From NCBI GenBank assembly GCA_001938485.1, contig MQRK01202609.1, positions 25,827 to 80,060 on the forward strand: a DNA stretch of 54,234 nt. Reading direction: 5' to 3'. A program made the translations under genes and the position numbers. Origin of the DNA: Girardia tigrina (lineage: Eukaryota). The notes under the pieces are model-generated. The model was not told the DNA's origin and ran no database searches. It worked only from the letters and a program-made list of their open reading frames with translations. Positions 1-35,244 of the stretch are shown here, in pieces; position 1 is the first letter of the stretch, and the number at the start of each line of letters is the position of its first letter.

Positions 1-163
1 ACTGCCTCGAGCATCGGTAGATGCTGCAGTAGTATGTAAAAAAGGATTGGAAGATTTTGTCTCCTCAAATACTCACAGATTCTTCATCATCACAGGACTT
101 CCTTGCGATTTTTTGAAAAGATATATATATATATATATAACTTATATAACTATATATAACTTA

Positions 164-353
164 ATGCCGTCACATCTCAATGCCGTTCTTCGGGGTCGCA
201 AGGGGTTCCATGGGTGCAACACCGCCATGAATGTATATTATTTTTTTAATACGTTCAAATATATGTATTAAATCTAATTGTCTTCTTTCTTGGTCTTTCT
301 GTAATATGTTTGATACTTAACGTTTTGTAAGGGATCGGTAACGGACCGCAACA
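164..353 (-). mobile_element. Terminal fragment of a relative of the 24567-27906 LTR-like element
   Basis: Ends in CGGACCGCAACA (342-353), identical to 27895-27906. Also shares AAATATATGTATTA, TTTGTAAGGGAT and the peptide HL..A.LRG..G...C....YY with the last exon of that element. Confidence 0.6.
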
Positions 354-604
354 TATACATAAAATAATTTGAATTTTATTTAACTTTTTTTAGGATATAT
401 TAAGAAGTATTGAACTTGATCGGAAAAAAATTATGCACGTTTGACTTTGTGGGTGGGGAAAACATACGAGATTCACTGTCCATAGTTTTAACAACATATA
501 TACTTTATTGGTAGGTAAGGATATCATCGCTAAATAGGATTTATATTTGATTTTTTTGTTTTTTCTTCATCAATGTTATCCATAGTTTTAACAACATATA
601 TATA

Positions 605-21004: not shown

Positions 21005-21100
21005 TGTGAACGAGAAATAAGGATTTATTTCAATAACAAGATTTACAAACCGTTCTCCGAATTATGATTATTTAAACAAGTTTTCGACGTTTCCACTACA
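21005..21100 (-). repeat. 3' LTR of the Gypsy element
   Basis: TGTAGTGG...GTTCACA on the minus strand, preceded by the PPT, repeated at 27908. Confidence 0.9.
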
Positions 21101-21149
21101 CTCTCCCTTGCCTTCAAGGCACAAACGCATACGCCTTCTGTGCAATGGA

Positions 21150-23780
21150 GAGTCTCTCTCGGATCTGGTTCTGTCACTCCTGTGAACAAATAATCTGCAA
21201 ATCTCGCTGGCTGAACGGTCGCTCGATTCGGCCTCGGTTGCCGCACCTCATTGGATTGAGTCTGACTGTTTTTAATGGCATCCATTCTCCTATTCAATGT
21301 CTGCTCGTCCTCCTCGTCTGAGCTATCACTACAGGCGCCTGCATTCTTCGATCTAGGGACAACTCGCAAACTCGATATTCCCTCTGCTGTCATTGTTGAC
21401 CAACTCTCTGGCACACGCCTGATGTGTGACACATGGAACGGGATCCCGTCAATCTCGACTTGATGGGGTGGGCGGAATCCGCTCACTACTGCTCGTTTCC
21501 ACTGCGTCGTGCACGTCGCGCTCACCTGTTTCACGAACATGACATCCCAAACTTGTAGATCCCTCGTCTGCACAATTTAAGTGCCCTTTGAAAGTTGGTC
21601 CGCGAAATCGACTGGTAGTGGCAGTCGCCGCCGTTATGCAAACACTGTGGACGCCGAAATCACATCCGTTGAATTTGGAGTGGCGTTGTACCACGCAACT
21701 ATATCGTTGACCGGCTTCCTACTTCGCGCCGCCATGCGCTTGATGATCCGATAGCAGCATTCAGCGATATCGTTTCCTCTGGGTCGATTTGCACACCAAA
21801 ACCGCATTTCGACACCCATTTCGGAAAGCAATCGTCGGATTGCCTCTCAAAAATGTGTCATGAAATTATCCAGTAGAAGCTCTTGTGGTGGGCCGAATTC
21901 ATTGAACACCGCTTTCAGAGTGGCAAACAAATATCCATCGCATTCTGAAGCGATCCTTCTCCATACTTCGAACCGGTTCGGTCCGCAATCGACCAGTGTC
22001 ATGTACTTTCCCTCAGATGTGTGTGTCACGTCCATGGCGAGCCGCTTCCATGTTTCTTTGACGCCAAGCTCGCCTTTCTCCCACTTTACTTGTGACGGAT
22101 CGATTAATGCGCTCTGAAGACATCATTTTCCCACCGCCTGCACCTACTTCTCAGTTATTCGCCCTGGACCCCACATATTACTCTCCAAGAACATCATCCG
22201 CTTCACTCCGAAATGGTGGATAGCATGGAGCGCCTGCAGACGATCTATCGGCTGCCCCTTTCCCTCCATCGTTACTGCCGCCACATTCGGTCGATCTTTT
22301 GATGCTATCACCCAGTCACTAGGCACGCGAGTGAGGCCATCTGCTCGGTTCTCTGTTGAACTGAACAATTTGCACTCCACTTGAAGCTTCTCCTCTTCGA
22401 TAGTCTGCTTGATTGTGCAGATGCGTCGCTTTACGAGCAGCTCACTCATCCCACTGGATCTAACCGGTCCATCGCCCCTGGTAGCGTTTGTTGCCTTTAT
22501 TGCCTCATTAGCCGCTTCAAGTTCTGCCAGGTTAATGTGAGCGGCGTCATCCTCCTTACGAAGCCACGAAGCATCCTCGACCACCGCTTCCCCTATAACG
22601 GTCGCGATCGAACTTGCATCACATCACACTTGACCGTATTTTCGGTCGGGTACTTCCCACTTGTCGTTCACCGGATCTTCGTTCGCGAGCCGTTCCGCCA
22701 ATGTCTGCGCAATGTCAACTACACGTGGTTCTATTGTATCGTCCTAACCGCCTCTACAGGCCAGCCTTTTTAAGAAACTACATGCCAGTCTCAGCCAACC
22801 ACACATCTGCAGCTTCCGTAATTTGTGTATCCGACCCGAGCACGTGGTCCATGATACGCCTCATAATTTTTGGGGCCGCGTTCAATCCAAAGCCCAGTCG
22901 CGTCAGGCACCACATCTTCCCCTCGTGGTGGATCACTTAATAGGGCCATAGTCTCGAGTCCACCTTAATTTGCAGATATGCTCACCTCAAATCGATTATC
23001 TCGAGCGATGACCCCATCTTCCGCCATTTGCGCAGCTTTTCAGCGCACACCAGGCTTTCTGTGGTGTGGCTGGACACGAACTCGTTTAAGGCTATGTAGT
23101 CTAGCACCGGTCGCATCTTCCCCTTTGCCGCCTGAATCACCGCCATCAGAGGCAAAATTGCCTTTGCTTAACCATTAAACGGGATGAGGCACCCGTTTTT
23201 CTTCCATTCGGACAACTCCTGGATCACATCTTCTTCGTACTGTTTGGCCGAAGCGTATGCGGCCTCTCCCCCCAAGCAACTCTGGTGACTCCTCACCACT
23301 CTTCCACTTCCATAATGCGGTTGTCAAACTCGACAATAAAATCAGAATCGTCAATCCGCATGCGTCCCGGTTGCTTCGCTCTGCCCACCGCTGCCTGATA
23401 TTCAATCTGTCCAAGTTTTGGGGTAACACATCTACCGGGCACCTACACGCCCCAAGTTGGTTAATCGCGTCCATGCCGAAAAGAATCCCCGTCCTCGACT
23501 CGGCAACTTCTAGTACCACTAGAACACGACATTCGATCCGCTTGCCGCTGCACTCAATCGACAGGGTCGCTTTAAATTGCACGACCACCGCCGACCCGTA
23601 CATCATCCAAACAACTTCTTCAACTCAATCCAGCTTTGCCGACGGGATCATCGCCTTCGCTATGACTGACGTCGAACATCCTGTGTCGACCCTTGCCCTT
23701 GCAGTCCTTCCACACACGATCACAGGAACGAATAGAAGTCGCGCGTCACCGCAACCAGGCTCCCCAACCGCGCGATAGTG
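21150..23780 (-). pseudogene. Gypsy pol (protease, partly deleted RT, RNase H, integrase)
   Basis: Motifs ARVDTGCS, LDYIALN, AYLQI, LTRLGFGLNAAPKIM, EDASWLR...HINLAELEA, ENRADGLTR, MDVTH...LVDCGP...LLLDN. Many frameshifts; YxDD not seen. Confidence 0.88.
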
Positions 23781-23788
23781 AGGACCCG

Positions 23789-24545
23789 CTATTCGTTTCC
23801 CGCTCGGTCAGTTTTTAGGCGCGGGTACCTTACAATGCGGCCCACCCGACCGCAGCTGAAGCATCTGCTTTCCCGTTCATTATCTTGGTTCGCGGTTCGA
23901 TCGGTTGTATTATGGGCACTCCGCCTACCTGTCGCACATTCACGCGCCAAATGCCCAATCCCGCCGCAACAATAACATCTCGGTTCTCCTGTATCGGGCG
24001 ACGGGAACGGTGGTGGCCGATCCAATGGCCATGCAGCTGCCGCTGTCTCATCAGTGGGTTCACGTCTTGCCTTGACATGCACTCGAGCCCATCGGACCAA
24101 GGTTTCCAGATCCAACGTTTTGTTGAGCGCTTCGGCCTCCACACTTCTCATGGCTTCCTCGAGCAGCCCATTTATGAAGGCCTGAGCCACAAAAGCCTCC
24201 CAGTGGCCTCTGTTGCCACAGATGACAGCCGCTTACCGCTTCAAATCAGCCATGAAAACATCTACGCCCTCACCGGGTGCAAGCTGTCGGGATGTACAAC
24301 TCACCCATGATAGCTTCAGGCTTTGGGCGAACGCTTCTGTAAGTGCGGCTGTGCTCTTCTCAAAATCTTGCCGCATCTAGTTACTGAATTCACGGAATAC
24401 GACTGATGCCTCGCCCATCAGTGCAAGTGACAGCATCACCAGCTTGTTCTCTTTGAGCGTATCCGCGCACTCGCGATATCGCTCGATCCAAATCGAAAAA
24501 TCCCCCGAGCCCGTCATACGCCGGTCCGATTTTCAGAGTCTTCAT
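23789..24545 (-). pseudogene. Gypsy gag with CCHC zinc knuckles
   Basis: MKTLKIGPAYDG.../FSIWIERY..., knuckle CYCCGGIGHLAREC and a degenerate second knuckle. Confidence 0.85.
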
Positions 24546-24799
24546 CAAAAAGCCGCGATAGCCTGTTGTCACGACCCTTTCGAGTGAAAACATTTTTAAA
24601 ATCTCCCAGTGATTGTTAAGGGTCAATCACAACCCACGTTAAATTTATTTCGATTCTAACGCCATTATATATAGGGTCGGACGCCTCCTATCTTGCCTGA
24701 CATCTGCCTAGCAGTGCCAAGCTCAAGGGGCCTTCGGGTTCAGCTAAAGGTAGGATAGGCTGTGGGCCCCCCCACCTGGGTCAGCATCAATAGGGGATG

Positions 24800-26103
24800 A
24801 TTTCAATTTGTACAGTTGAGTAATTTTCTGCTAATTACATCGCTTATGTCTGCCCGTAGAGGTGTGCTGACATTATATATTTGAAAGGTTAGTTTATCGT
24901 AAGAATTAGAGTTCATAATAAAGTCGTCGTCATTTCGGCCATCTTATCTCTGTTCTAATCCAGCTTACTACGTTTTCTGGAAACCTCTCCCTGGCACTCT
25001 TGTCTAGAATAATTTTTCCTCATAATATTAAATCCTAGTATCGTTTAGCAGAGGCATCTGATCATATTACATCTAATTCGTAGTTCAGTCATTAAATTTG
25101 TATAGAGTCTAAAAGGAAATCCCTATCTAAATTCGTTGATTTTCTCCGGAAACCTAATTTCAAATATCAACCATATCTTATAAATTTTTATTGATTTAGT
25201 AAACGATATTTTATATTTATCAAACAACCAAATGATATTCACAACTTTAAAAAATGGTAAATAAATATCATGTTATTCTAGCAATCTTAAATTAAACTTT
25301 CAGCCGATCGTTCTGACATCTCCAGTCACTATGAAAACAATAAGGATTGTGTAAATAATTACTTCGAAGTTTTCTATTTATTTTAATTATTTACAGGACT
25401 CGATCGTGAAATTTATGGAATAAAATTTTTAAATTTGATAAAATAACATTAATTGGATAAAATTTACGAAATTTCGCAGAAAAAAATTTCTTTTTTTTTA
25501 TAATATCATAAGTTTCGCTACATATTCGTCCAAATTACTACAATTTTATCATAATGATCCAATTAATCAGGTAATCGAATTCTGCAAAAAGTCGCATGAA
25601 AATTATAAAAATTTATTTAATGAATAAAAATCATGAAAGTAATTAATAGTAAAATCTATATTATATACAAAAATTTTACGTTCAAAAAAATAGGTTTGTT
25701 TTAATATTCCAATCCTATCCTCGAGGTCGCGCCACCAAATCAAACCCCGTCGGATTTTATCATCATGTTTCTGGCGGAACGGAGTTTCTCTCGACTCTAT
25801 TGCCGTTTGATTAATCTAGGCGACTCGCGATTCCACGCTGTCTGGAGTCCACTCAATACGAGCACCTCAGTTAAATAACTTAATGGTAACGGTCTCTCAT
25901 CGACGATGATTAAGATACTGCGACCTTCATTGATTTATTCAGGCAATCGATAATTACTCCGGGGCATCTACGATGCAGGACGACGACGGCGGCTGTTGAG
26001 ACTTAACGATTTGGAACTCGTGGCCGTCCGGACTAAACCGGTGAAGGAGAATAACCCATCGGCACTTAAACTCGGTTAGATAATATTATATTCGATCAAT
26101 AAA
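24800..26103 (+). pseudogene. Putative decayed multi-exon gene inside the insertion
   Basis: GT-AG intron candidates at 25257-25303, 25351-25396, 25639-25693 (weaker at 24820-24859 and 24888-24963). GC-rich last exon and AATAAA at ~26098. No continuous ORF. Confidence 0.4.
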
Positions 26104-26309
26104 TACCTATAACTGAATTAATTAATAGAAAAGGATAAGAAGGATTAAATGTAAACTGTAATTCAATTTAAAATAAATTCAACTTGAAACATTTATTTAA
26201 ATTTTTAAAACCAAAATGAAATTCGTCAATATAAAATGAATACAATATACTAATTTAATTTACTATAATAGTGTTCGGAGGAGTGTTAAATCTCGGGTCA
26301 ATCGCTAGT

Positions 26310-26960
26310 TCACGGGTCGTTCTTCGTCGGCTATCTCGATAATAAGTCGGGGTACTCAGTCACGGTTCTGCACTGGAATTGGCTGTCTCAAGTCGCGGCT
26401 GTGGCCCTCTTTTTCGATTTCGTCACCGTCTATCACCAATGAATCCCGCTCTGTGGCTGATCGTTGGTGTTTCCCCTTGGTTATTTGACTTGCTTCTTTC
26501 TCCTGGCTATCGTTGGATTGCGCTACTGCGGTTCGTTGCTCAAATCGATTTTCTTGAAGGTACGTTAATACATCGTCTCAAGCGTCTATCAAAATTGTGT
26601 GACTTAGTTAACCACTTCTGTGGTCAACCTCTTGGAAAAAAAATTGGCATTGTGCCAAATTTGTCCGTGTAATGTTCTAATAAAATATCTGCGAGTCTCG
26701 GTGAGGTATAAAAGTTGTCTGTGGTAAGACAATGTCCTAAATGCAATATGGGTTTCATCAGATGCATAACAATTTGCCCGAATCCAGTTCGGGCAAATCA
26801 CTGTGTCAGCAAAATACCTACCCGAATGGTATTCGGGCAAATCACAGAAGTGGTTGACTTTTCTTTTATATTCTAGATATGCTATCCTGTTGTCTTCTTT
26901 TGTCCAACCAGATCTCGCCAACCCACTGTCTGAAATTTCTGCAATGCTAGTTGGTTATGC
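26310..26960 (-). pseudogene. Frameshifted ORF of unknown function inside the insertion
   Basis: 105-aa ORF (26604-26921) with Cys/His residues, followed in another frame by a ~73-aa hydrophilic stretch (DDVLTYLQENRFEQ...). Confidence 0.4.
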
Positions 26961-27063
26961 TGGTAAGTGTGTTTCTAAAAAATTTTCGAAATTTTAAAAC
27001 TTTTTTACTTTATTATAAGATCCAGTGCTCGTGTGTCTTTACACACTCACAAACTTCTCCAAC

Positions 27064-27855
27064 ATGCCTGCTGCTGATTCATGGATGATTCACATGGAAT
27101 CATCAGCTAACGATTATTTTCGGATTCTGGGTTGACTCATGGTAAAATTAATTAATTTTCTATTTTTCTTAATTAATTGTTTGATCTTTCAGGGGCTGTA
27201 ACTTTTCTCGAGGAGATCCTACGGCCTCGCTGGTTTTGCCCACGGATTACCCGCGCGAAGATCTTTCGTGGGAGGGTCGGTCGACCCTGTGGCACCATCG
27301 GATAATTCAGTAGGTGAGTTTGTTGTTTTCTTTCTGATTTTTAATTAATTTTTTCTCTTTAAGAGTGAATAACTTCTTTCAGGGATCCGCTGTTGTCTCA
27401 CACGTTCTGCCCATGGATCCGTCTCGCGAGGGGCTACGTGGAGGGGGTTGGATGACCTCTCAGCTCCAATAGGTAATTCGGTAAGCGACTTTATTAATTT
27501 TTGGTTTTATTTTAATTAATTTTTTTCTTTCAAGGTTTACTATCTCTACTCGCGGGTTCTTCAAACATCGAGGGGTCATTCTCGCGGATTCCCCGCAGTG
27601 TTTCTGCCTGTGGCGGGGCGGTTGTTCGCCCTCTTTAATCGGGTAAGTTTTAATTCGACTCTGTCTCGTCTTTCTTTATGTGTTTCTAGTTCCCATGCGC
27701 ATCTCCAGTGTCTCGCTGCTCTACGAGGGGATCGGGGTCATCTTTGCCGTTCGAATTGGTGTTATTATTTAAATATATGTATTATTTGTAAGGGATTCCT
27801 TTGTTTTCTTTATGTTTGCTGCATGTTGTGTTTGGTGATTTGTGGGTTCGCGTAG
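27064..27855 (+). pseudogene. Five-exon gene with tandemly duplicated exons inside the insertion
   Basis: TATAA at ~27014 and caacATG at 27064. Introns 27142-27192, 27310-27363, 27481-27534, 27643-27689. Internal exons 117/117/108 nt. One frame has a single stop across exons 2-5; a frameshift is needed in exon 1. Confidence 0.65.
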
Positions 27856-27907
27856 AATGTGTTTCTGTTCGTAACAATGTTTTGTGATGTATTTCGGACC
27901 GCAACAC

Positions 27908-28011
27908 TGTGAACGAGAATAATGAAAATAAGGATTTATTTCTATAACAAGATTTAAAAACCGTTCGCCGAATTCTGATTATTTAAACAAGTTTTCGACG
28001 TTTCTACTAAA
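27908..28011 (-). repeat. 5' LTR of the Gypsy element
   Basis: Near-identical to 21005-21100, with an 8-bp indel and a few substitutions. Confidence 0.9.
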
Positions 28012-29369
28012 ATGTCGCGATGATACAAAGTTTGAATGTTCGACAATTAGGGATATATATATTAAAATTTTATTTGGAAAAATATTTAATGAAGTTTTAA
28101 ATAATTTTTACTAATTTTTGTTCTGTATAATTTTTAACACAACGTATATTAATATTTTTTAAATATTTTATAATTTGTTTTACAAAATCAATTGAATAAA
28201 TAAATAAAAATAGTTATTTAAGCAATTAAAAAATTGACTTAGCTGAAAACTTAATTCCAAAAATAATTTTGAATAAAGAGAAGCCAGTGAAATTTGCAGT
28301 AATCCTTAAAGAATTTGAAGTAACATTTTATTATTGTTCTTTCCTCTTAATAATCAAGTATCCTGTAAAGGAGAACACGATTAAAACAATTGTCATTTTT
28401 CACCGTTATTGCTCGTACAAACGTATTGACATTGAAGAACTGTGTGTTCAGCGTTTATTAATTATTGTTGGATTGTTATTTAGATTTGTACTACAAGCGG
28501 TAATTGATAATTGAAGATTGAAACATTTATTTGAAGCTGTGTTTAAATTTGTGTTATTAAAAATAAAAGTTATTAAGAGAATTTGTGTTCACTTGTTCAT
28601 ATATTTGTGTTGGAAGTGCCTACTAAATTATTGGAGTCAGATATAAAGTTGCGATCAAAATATTGATAATAAACTTTGAATATTTTGAATACCCAACACT
28701 AAATTTTTATAAACGGAAGCCGTGTCTGTTATTGGGATTAATTTTTGGATCGAGAAATTAATTTGATTTTGACGGAGTTAATTTGAAATTTTAAATCGAG
28801 GTAAAGGATTTTACAATTATAAAATTTAGTAATATTTTTCTTTTTTTTAACGGCTTAAATTTAATTGGAAATATTTTTAATTTAAGTTTAACTTAAAATT
28901 ATATTATAAGAATTTTCCATAATAAAAGTCCAAAAAATAGATAATGTTTATTTTTATGACACAATCAAATAATGCTCGTCTAAAATTAATTACACTGATT
29001 GATTTAAACAATCTCAGGAGTTATTATATATTCAGGATCCTTTGATATAATATGATATTGCTATAAATAATTATATGTATTTTAATTTATAAACATATAG
29101 TTATTAATTATTCTCACATATATAACTATTAATATTTTGAAATTATATTTCTTAAACTGACCTACTTTGTTTGATAAGTGACACTTATCAACAAAAAATT
29201 TATTAGAATAAGTATTTTCCTCAGTGAGATATATTCCATATTTATAAATATAGATATTATTTTATTATTTGTGAATTGTTCATAATAAATTATTTTTTAC
29301 TTTTAAAAACAATTTTTGTGTTCTTCCTCATTGTTCAAAATTCAAATCATCTATTCTAAGATCAATAAT

Positions 29370-33425: not shown

Positions 33426-34058
33426 CTGTGAAAAGAAATATACTAATACGTTTTGAGCCGTTTATTCTGAATTTTTTATAGTATCTGTAAAATCGCGTGG
33501 CGTAATAAAACAAGCAAAATCGTGAGAAAGATAATGGTTACACAAAGCTGAGCACCACGTGGTAAAACTTTGGACGCGTACGGTAATGTGCGTTCAACAA
33601 AAGAATATGCGTGAGAAAGGTGCGTGGCTCAAAATTCTCTGTGAGTGAAGTACGCGTGAGAGAATGCGCAGTTGTGTATCGCTTGATTAAAAGAATAAGG
33701 TACGCATGACCACGCAGCAGTAAAGGACGCATCATGCGTGAAGACTTATCATAATAATAATAATTTTTTTTAAATAAATAATAAGATATTTAATTTAAAT
33801 TATTTTATATAGAAATATAAATAATAAATAAATACATGCTAAAAAATAACACAAAAATACTATAATATGTTAAAAATAACACAAAAATATTATAATAAAA
33901 ATTCACAATGTTTCTATAAACAATCAATCAACAACAACAAAAAAAGTCTATATTTATATTACCCCAACAAAATTATTTCATTAGTTTTCGTTTTACGTGA
34001 TTTTGTGACCGAATATTTTTGAAATATGATAGAACAAAAGTCGATCATCGTTAAGAAA

Positions 34059-34390
34059 ATGTCATCTAACATCACAAGTAATCTTACAATCAGCGGTGAA
34101 CGATTTACCGGTGACAATGTTCGTCGACAAAACACATTAGCCATCCAAACGATCGCCAATATCGTCAAAACGAGTCTCGGTCCAGTCGGTCTCAATAAAA
34201 TGCTCGTCGACGACGAGGGCGAAGTGACAATCAGCAATAACGGCGCGACAATTCAGAAACTAGTCGAAATCGAACACCCGGTGGCGAAAATTCTCGTCGA
34301 ACTCGCCCAACTCCAAGACAAAGAAGTTTGCGACGGAACGACCTCCGTGGTGATAATCGCCGCCGAATTGTTGAAACTCGTCGAAGAACA
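34059..34390 (+). pseudogene. TCP1: T-complex protein 1 subunit alpha (CCT1) 5' fragment
   Basis: IANIVKTSLGPVGLNKMLVDD...GATI...EIEHPVAKILVELAQLQDKEVCDGTTSVVIIAAELLK. Similarity ends after ~110 aa and conserved nucleotide-binding residues are altered. Confidence 0.85.
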
Positions 34391-35244
34391 AATCAAATCG
34401 ATATTTTTTCTATGTGATCTCGCGGTGTTATCAAATTTCAGAAACAAAAGATCATGTGAGATCTATCCCAATAATCTCAAATTGTCTATTGATGGTTCAG
34501 CTCTGTAACAGTACTCTAATTCTTAGGTTAATGTCTTTGTTTCGCATGCATGGTATGTCCTTGCTTTGAGTTTCTTTATACAATGACATCCGAGTTGACC
34601 TTCAGCTCCACACAATGAACATTTTAAATATAAACACTCTCTTCTGACATGTCCGAACCCTGTGAAAAAGATAACCATCATATGAAGCCTCGTTATACTG
34701 TACCATTTCCGGTTATTTCTATTAAAGGTAATCTCGAGCGTCTGAAGCCAGCATTCGGTTTTTCCAAAGACGAGAACCACCCCGAACTCCGTTCTTCTCC
34801 AAGGGGGCTATGTGGTGATGTCATTCCTCACCACATTCAATAATATTGAACTTCAATGATGTCACATCTCATGACATCACTAGAGTTCAAATTCAGGTGA
34901 TTTAATGTCATGACATCACCGGAATATGGAATTGCATAAACTGACCCATTGCCTTAATATAAAAGATCGACGATTTTCCAATTGAATTGGTTAGCAAACC
35001 CTAATCAATATTTTTTATAATAAATTTTATTATCTAGTTTGCGTTCTTTATATATATATATATATATTCTTAATTTAAAATATATGCATGTATAATTGAA
35101 AATATACTTATGTATAATTTAAAATACTATAATAGTAGAATAATTCATAATTTTGAAATTATTAGATTATCAACAAATATAAATTATTTAAACATTCGTG
35201 TTTAACTGAAGTATTTGTTACTCAAATCAGCTGATTCAAAAAAC

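Follow-up and report, generated by a model that had tools for sequence, protein, structure and literature searches.

The two related sequences at 172-353 and 24567-27906 in a 54,234-nt stretch of Girardia tigrina DNA (positions 25,827 to 80,060 of contig MQRK01202609.1; hereafter, the window) are not host cargo; both are long terminal repeats (LTRs) of a giant gypsy retrotransposon of the Burro-like kind. A run of three to six short introns lies antisense to the element at the U3 end of these LTRs, and this conserved spliced antisense unit inside giant LTRs is real. Our preferred reading, to which we give a probability of roughly 0.6, is that the Burro-like LTRs produce a spliced, probably non-coding antisense RNA, the likely end of which is an AATA(T/A)A signal within the LTR. 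The mapped features are listed in Table 1.

Table 1 LTR copies, antisense exons and signals in the window.
Feature	Position	Strand	Remarks
LTR tip, second subfamily	172..353	+	5'-truncated; terminal antisense exon and U3 edge; element reads on the minus strand
AATATA	258..263	+	candidate poly(A) signal of the antisense RNA
Solo LTR, Burro-like gypsy	24567..27906	-	complete; TGT...ACA; flanking 4-bp duplication CTGT
Best-conserved LTR end	24567..24800	-	likely R/U5; common to distant subfamilies
Secondary insertion	26612..26854		terminal inverted repeats; sister copies without it
Exon A	26877..26962	+	intron 26963-27019 predicted, skipped in an X1 contig
Exon B	27020..27141	+	ends in TGACTCATG; intron 27142-27192 skipped in X1, GT..AG
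Exon C1	27193..27309	+	possible second donor 4 nt further on
Hairpin GGGTC-N4-GACCC	27274-27287	+	within exon C1
Exon C2	27364..27480	+	tandem paralogue of C1
Exon D, 108 nt	27535..27642	+	predicted; intron 27643-27689 skipped in X1, GT..AG
Terminal antisense exon	27690..27906	+	"exon 5" of the preliminary description; AATATA at 27772-27777; LTR edge

Two diverged LTRs of one family

The 12-mer CGGACCGCAACA, which a preliminary description of this DNA had taken as the terminus common to two copies, has exact matches at 342-353 and 27895-27906; even with two mismatches allowed, the window contains no other. Across the genome CKGACCGCAACA had 516 matches compared with 92 for the reversed control and thus marks a family end, and the opposite family end had 415 matches compared with 0 for the controls. 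The homology of 172-353 to 27690-27906 is clear at the DNA level (local score 59, shuffles 33 ± 5, p = 0.0005). The first copy is, as proposed, a diverged second member of the family of 27690-27906.

With window positions 1-360 as the query, sister matches span 172-353 at 78-93% identity, and the full-length ones begin at 171-172. By these matches both 1-163 and 164-171 are outside the family, including the ATG at 164. The first copy shares 93% identity with a complete 1,579-bp solo LTR (locus L052), and a sister with 84% identity (L072/L164) directly adjoins a Burro-like internal region. The missing upstream part of this copy was not found in the readable part of the neighbouring DNA, and the copy may be either truncated or interrupted. 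Window positions 1-119 belong to a separate repeat with 90-100% identity to many loci, and 120-163 is a TA run.

A 4-bp target duplication was found at 9 of the 11 complete units without internal flanks (window copy included), and 5 further units adjoin a primer-binding site (PBS) or the polypurine tract (PPT). On the minus strand, TTT(T)TGGGGGCTCAGCCGGGAT or a sequence close to it comes after the unit in 9/15 loci. This TGGGGGCTCAGCCGGGAT-like PBS is complementary to the 3' end of tRNA-Pro(TGG) genes in the same genome, and in full elements among the other copies it abuts the end corresponding to 24567-24800. The other LTR end is joined to the common PPT (153 junctions vs 5 in controls). Three features expected of a solo LTR of the Ty3/gypsy type were found, namely TG...CA ends with a duplication, PBS and PPT flanks in full elements, and the protease-RT-RNase H-integrase order in the linked internal region (see below). 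Two other assignments were rejected. A DNA transposon with cargo was rejected on ends that match as inverted repeats at only 7/11 bases and on the presence of the PBS and PPT flanks, and an LTR in the plus orientation on finding only 5 matches with TGG after CCG(C/T)AACA, their flanks being unrelated.

Several further observations concern these loci and the rest of the window. The tRNA-Pro(TGG) genes are arranged in tandem with a spacing of about 646 bp (L225, L227, L228). At locus L108 (G000:C214077), one LTR has a PPT junction on one side and a PBS on the other, that is, tandem elements with a common LTR. The secondary insertion in the complete window LTR is 243 bp long, has inverted ends CCACTTCTGTG, lies beside TTAA, and is missing from the sisters and from a contig of the sequencing run X1 (see below). 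The solo LTR itself sits inside a smaller decayed gypsy-like element (21005-28016, minus strand), just within its 5' repeat; this element has a zinc knuckle and terminal repeats of about 100 bp (21015-21105 and 27926-28016, 91% alike). An ORF at 34023-34508 on the plus strand resembles the start of a chaperonin (CCT/TCP-1) subunit.

Internal region and comparison with Burro

The internal region upstream of the PPT aligns between copies over about 17 kb. One 2,825-aa frame contains, in order, Pfam matches to ubiquitin-like, fusion protein, protease, dUTPase-like, RT, and RNase H domains; the fusion match (Monjiviricetes_fusion, E = 6e-34) is upstream of the protease and RT in the same frame. 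Integrase, capsid-like, and zinc-knuckle matches were detected in another copy. The ubiquitin-like, dUTPase-like, and CCHC gag matches are in the expected places, at scores below the Pfam cut-offs (E = 8e-5, 0.006, 2e-4, and 0.001). In its domain order the polyprotein is Burro-like, with an env-like fusion domain in frame between gag and pol.

Burro (GYPSM1) elements are giant gypsy-like LTR retrotransposons of planarians (PMC6431247). As in Burro, by the account in the relevant section of that paper, the elements here have a gypsy pol, an env-like fusion domain in frame between gag and protease, a candidate ubiquitin-like domain before env and a candidate dUTPase-like one between protease and RT (both below cut-offs here), accessory ORFs upstream, and a long internal region (here 17 kb or more aligned, on fragmented contigs) (PMC6431247). 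A Burro-like element would be expected to exceed 25-30 kb in total. A scan of 8 frames (Pfam, E 0.01), which represent part of each element, gave no match to the MATH, BIR, BCL2-like, and ankyrin domains of Burro; that paper used profile-profile searches (PMC6431247). Behind the PBS is an array of at least 8 short coiled-coil-like ORFs of 115-150 aa (L113:3770-5099, L108, L112, L114, and others), the first of which is under clear purifying selection; three of the array ORFs were scanned and none matched a Pfam family above the cut-off. Loci on the PPT side (L155, L164, and others) have long open frames extending past the integrase to about 250 nt before the LTR, two of which were scanned without a Pfam match.

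An intron chain antisense to the element

Among 69 non-redundant LTR ends (78 minus 9 that were not family LTR ends), an intron finder detected 3.6 introns per end on the antisense strand vs 0.23 on the other, a ratio inflated by tuning the finder on the antisense strand and by picking the ends via an intron-like motif. An AATATA/AATAAA-like motif was present in the terminal exon of 67/69 ends with one mismatch allowed (AATATA in 51, AATAAA in 7). Widely different subfamilies share donors, acceptors, TTAATTAA motifs, and introns of 47-78 nt; donors, acceptors, and pyrimidine tracts are kept together on one strand among groups about 45-50% diverged. Exon B differs in length between subfamilies, with all phases represented. 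The exon-intron unit is old and kept across subfamilies, in agreement with the age that the preliminary description had assigned to the cargo gene. After TGACTCAT, several genomic copies read GC where GT would be expected in the likely donor, and they may form a subfamily with a GC-AG intron.

A 5-bp hairpin, GGGTC-N4-GACCC, is paired in 96.5% of cells over 17 exons, compared with 22-66% for slid controls. It has 16 one-sided changes to G-U pairs, which fit the antisense strand only, and no two-sided compensatory change in the 17 exons. No large RNA structure was found beyond this hairpin, with whole-exon folding z-scores mostly near zero. A known structured RNA in the LTR (5S-like as in Cassandra, ribozyme, or tRNA) was rejected, as Rfam searches of five loci gave only two chance-level microRNA matches, both outside the LTR, and ARAGORN predicted no tRNA in six loci.

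Enhancers normally lie in U3, and the kept motifs could instead be U3 enhancer DNA sites (TGACTCA-like, TTAATTAA, CCAAT, and GGGTC/GACCC half-sites), with splicing as incidental processing of read-through RNA. Two of these motifs, both candidate factor sites, do recur across groups: TGA(A/C)TCA, where exon B ends, and intronic TTAATTAA. Against this explanation, splice sites, pyrimidine tracts, and intron lengths are co-kept on one strand at such divergence, and the G-U-type changes in the hairpin favour RNA. We regard it as quite unlikely.

Intron skipping in likely-RNA contigs

Evidence for splicing came from the contigs of one run (X1), which we guess to be RNA and which give no strand, start, or end. 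These contigs skip three of the window introns, those after exons A, B, and D, the latter two with GT..AG ends, and one joint is compatible with a further upstream intron at 26560-26876. In the subfamily of the first copy (L164), X1 contigs skip the intron between exons B and C, and the intron before the terminal exon is retained in the one contig that covers it. Three more X1 joints in the L164 internal region were excluded on splice ends that were not clean. The genomic copies of the B-C junction are all intron-bearing (56, vs 0 intron-less), and the skipped form is thus best read as splicing; processed genomic copies as the source of the spliced contigs were rejected at this one junction. 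In runs X2-X4, next to none of the stretch was present.

The terminal exon is not coding

The preliminary description had interpreted the terminal exon as a conserved coding exon of a cargo gene, based on a peptide alignment between the two copies. The peptides are as claimed, and the LRG codons are indeed CTT CGG GGT and CTA CGA GGG. The HL-to-end distances, expected to be similar, are so without being equal (181 vs 207 nt). The alignment itself (score 34) beats residue shuffles for one frame pair (p = 0.005) but does not surpass neutral pairs: at 62% DNA identity, 27% of neutrally diverged random pairs attained the best-of-nine-frames score of 33, as did 10% and 77% under neighbouring settings and 0.8% of unrelated pairs.

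The inferred constraint on LRG was contradicted by the sisters. None of the 15 other rows of the 172-353 subfamily (some of them duplicates) keeps LRG, the position reading LWG in 6, LCG in 3, PWG in 2, and LRA, LLG, LWC, and L*G once each; in the 27690 subfamily, 10/12 rows have it. The likeness of YYFFN to YYLN comes from T-rich DNA beside AAATATATGTATT, which is the best-kept DNA motif and is read as KYMY and NICI in the two proposed frames. The acceptor-to-AAATATATGTATT distance, or exon length, occurs in all three phases (13, 21, and 17 of 51). In some sisters, the frame proposed for 164-353 is an in-frame continuation of the preceding 108-nt exon, while that proposed at 27690 is not the continuation of its upstream exon read from the first base. 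The peptide match is a by-product of DNA homology and the terminal exon is not coding: the neutral-pair scores, the loss of LRG, and the shifting phases overturn the claim by the kind of result that its own authors had named as decisive against it.

The wider claim of a captured host gene, carried as cargo and encoding a protein under purifying selection across subfamilies, agrees with the ordinary GT-AG exon-intron look and with a peptide score above residue shuffles. The unit is, on the evidence of the PBS and PPT junctions and the target duplications, part of the LTR itself, and neither the LRG residues, the phases, nor the comparison with neutral pairs bears the mark of a protein, for which no homologue was found either. 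The cargo reading is already largely refuted, and we consider it very improbable.

Codon signals in the internal exons

For the repeated internal exon, pN/pS was 0.84 vs a null of 0.88 in 33 subfamily groups (p = 0.32), 0.81 in 11 groups (p = 0.30), and 0.84 in a second set of 11 groups (p = 0.36), compared with 0.23 and a strong third-position bias for an internal ORF of the same element used as the control. The values are pairwise between subfamily groups, with column-shuffle nulls of 0.86-0.88. Groups were defined by frame-0 peptide prefixes in one 11-group analysis and by DNA identity in the other 11-group, the 13-group, and the 33-group analyses; exons that were out of register or contained N were dropped before counting, as were two out-of-register groups from a 7-group test (below). 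The 120-nt exon showed no codon bias, and stops were common to the copies in 4/8 multi-copy groups. The B-C junction occurs in phases 0, 1, and 2, and frame, start, and length phase are not kept across junctions. No frame is kept across subfamilies.

A mild signal was obtained for the 108-nt exon type, the one that comes before the terminal exon in the subfamily of the first copy. In frame 0 its pN/pS was 0.66 vs 0.91 (7 groups, p = 0.001, stable to dropping any group), with 0.61 vs 0.82 in 13 groups (p = 0.005) and 0.62 in 5 groups, the sets partly overlapping. An in-frame ATG within five codons was present in only 10/33 groups, whose pN/pS was 0.69 vs a null of 0.86 in a post hoc test (p = 0.035; 0.88 in the other 23 groups). 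Stops were depleted in codons 1-32 (p = 0.006-0.01), an effect lost over codons 1-37 (p = 0.23), and TAA/TAG was at codon 33 in 5/11 groups. Among 93 non-independent copies, the C and D exon lengths were divisible by three in 62. In three sisters of 172-353, spliced frames of 63-104 aa starting with ATG enter the frame of the preliminary description, and in others they stop at the end of the 108-nt exon.

These signals raise the alternative of a short, fast-changing peptide, encoded by the antisense RNA of some lineages, that would start at an ATG where exon B ends (M-G-Y...) and run for 33 codons or on into the terminal exon, with other lineages, both window copies included, having lost it or never carrying it. 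The codon bias of the 108-nt exons and the ATG-bearing groups, the few stops before codon 33, and the spliced frames of the three sisters all point this way. Against it are the lack of bias over all 33 groups and in the 120-nt exons, and the internal stops in most or all copies of 4/10 ATG-bearing groups. As several tests were run, the corrected p for the 108-nt and ATG signals was only about 0.02-0.1. The exon peptides tried had no homologue in a protein search (limited to proteins of 29-95 aa), no Atlas match, and no Pfam family, though such blanks prove little for peptides this short. With the number of tests taken into account, these signals hint at a short peptide in some lineages without proving one, and we consider such a peptide unlikely.

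Discussion

LTR elements normally lose introns. For the reading that we prefer, a spliced and probably non-coding antisense RNA, we propose that a promoter in the GC-rich middle of the LTR would fire away from the element's own direction and that transcription would reach an end signal before the LTR edge. As reverse transcription acts on RNA of the opposite strand, the introns would not be lost in copying, and a benefit of the processed RNA to the element may explain why the splice sites, the small hairpin, and the end signal persist. Such an RNA would be the complement of the U3 end in the element's own RNA. Supplied by full elements and by hundreds of solo LTRs, it would dampen the element's expression, whether through direct pairing or as input to the piRNA pathway. 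Self-restraint of this kind would be the likeliest use of the antisense RNA.

Planarian piRNAs are, as reported in PMC8532177, mostly antisense to transposons, and the main planarian piRNA clusters are described as rich in antisense LTR sequence (bioRxiv 10.64898/2026.01.28.702291). Among the closest likenesses are HeT-A and TART of Drosophila, whose spliced non-coding antisense RNAs have, as here, several introns and no long ORF and arise at the 3' non-coding end of the retroelement (PMC2615633). A link to small-RNA silencing has been proposed for them, and the authors suggest cryptic splice sites (PMC2615633). HeT-A and TART, however, are non-LTR telomeric elements (PMC2615633), whereas the introns here are inside the LTR, their places are kept across deep subfamilies, and one exon is tandemly repeated. 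Retroviral antisense RNAs from the 3' LTR include BLV AS1/AS2, HTLV-1 Hbz, and HIV-1 Ast (PMC10186651). As in those cases, the antisense RNA would come from the LTR (LTR-driven in BLV and HTLV, presumably so here); the retroviral RNAs are spliced in BLV and HTLV and are non-coding or bifunctional (PMC10186651). In the retroviral cases with an ORF, as outlined in that source, the coding part is in the internal region (PMC10186651), whereas in the gypsy element here a single LTR holds the entire exon chain together with the likely end signal, so that solo LTRs keep the unit.

Burro elements and spliced antisense RNAs of retroelements are both known; the unit in Burro LTRs was not found described. 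The Burro section of PMC6431247 is silent on introns or antisense RNA in the LTR, and our literature search found no account of either in Burro LTRs; Grohme et al. 2018 and Repbase lay outside this search, and an earlier description may exist.

A bolder idea, on which we would not bet, is that the Burro-like LTRs carry a small antisense gene of their own that arose by exon duplication inside U3 and is bifunctional, yielding an M-G-Y micropeptide in some lineages and acting as RNA alone in others. If true, every solo LTR would be a scattered, spliced, self-contained gene of the element.

The persistence of a unit of three to six introns within the LTR, in subfamilies diverged by about half, suggests a benefit to the element from the processed antisense RNA. 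The unit offers a concrete candidate source of antisense RNA from hundreds of solo LTRs, and it carries a warning for annotation: gene finders will mistake these LTRs for host genes with several exons.
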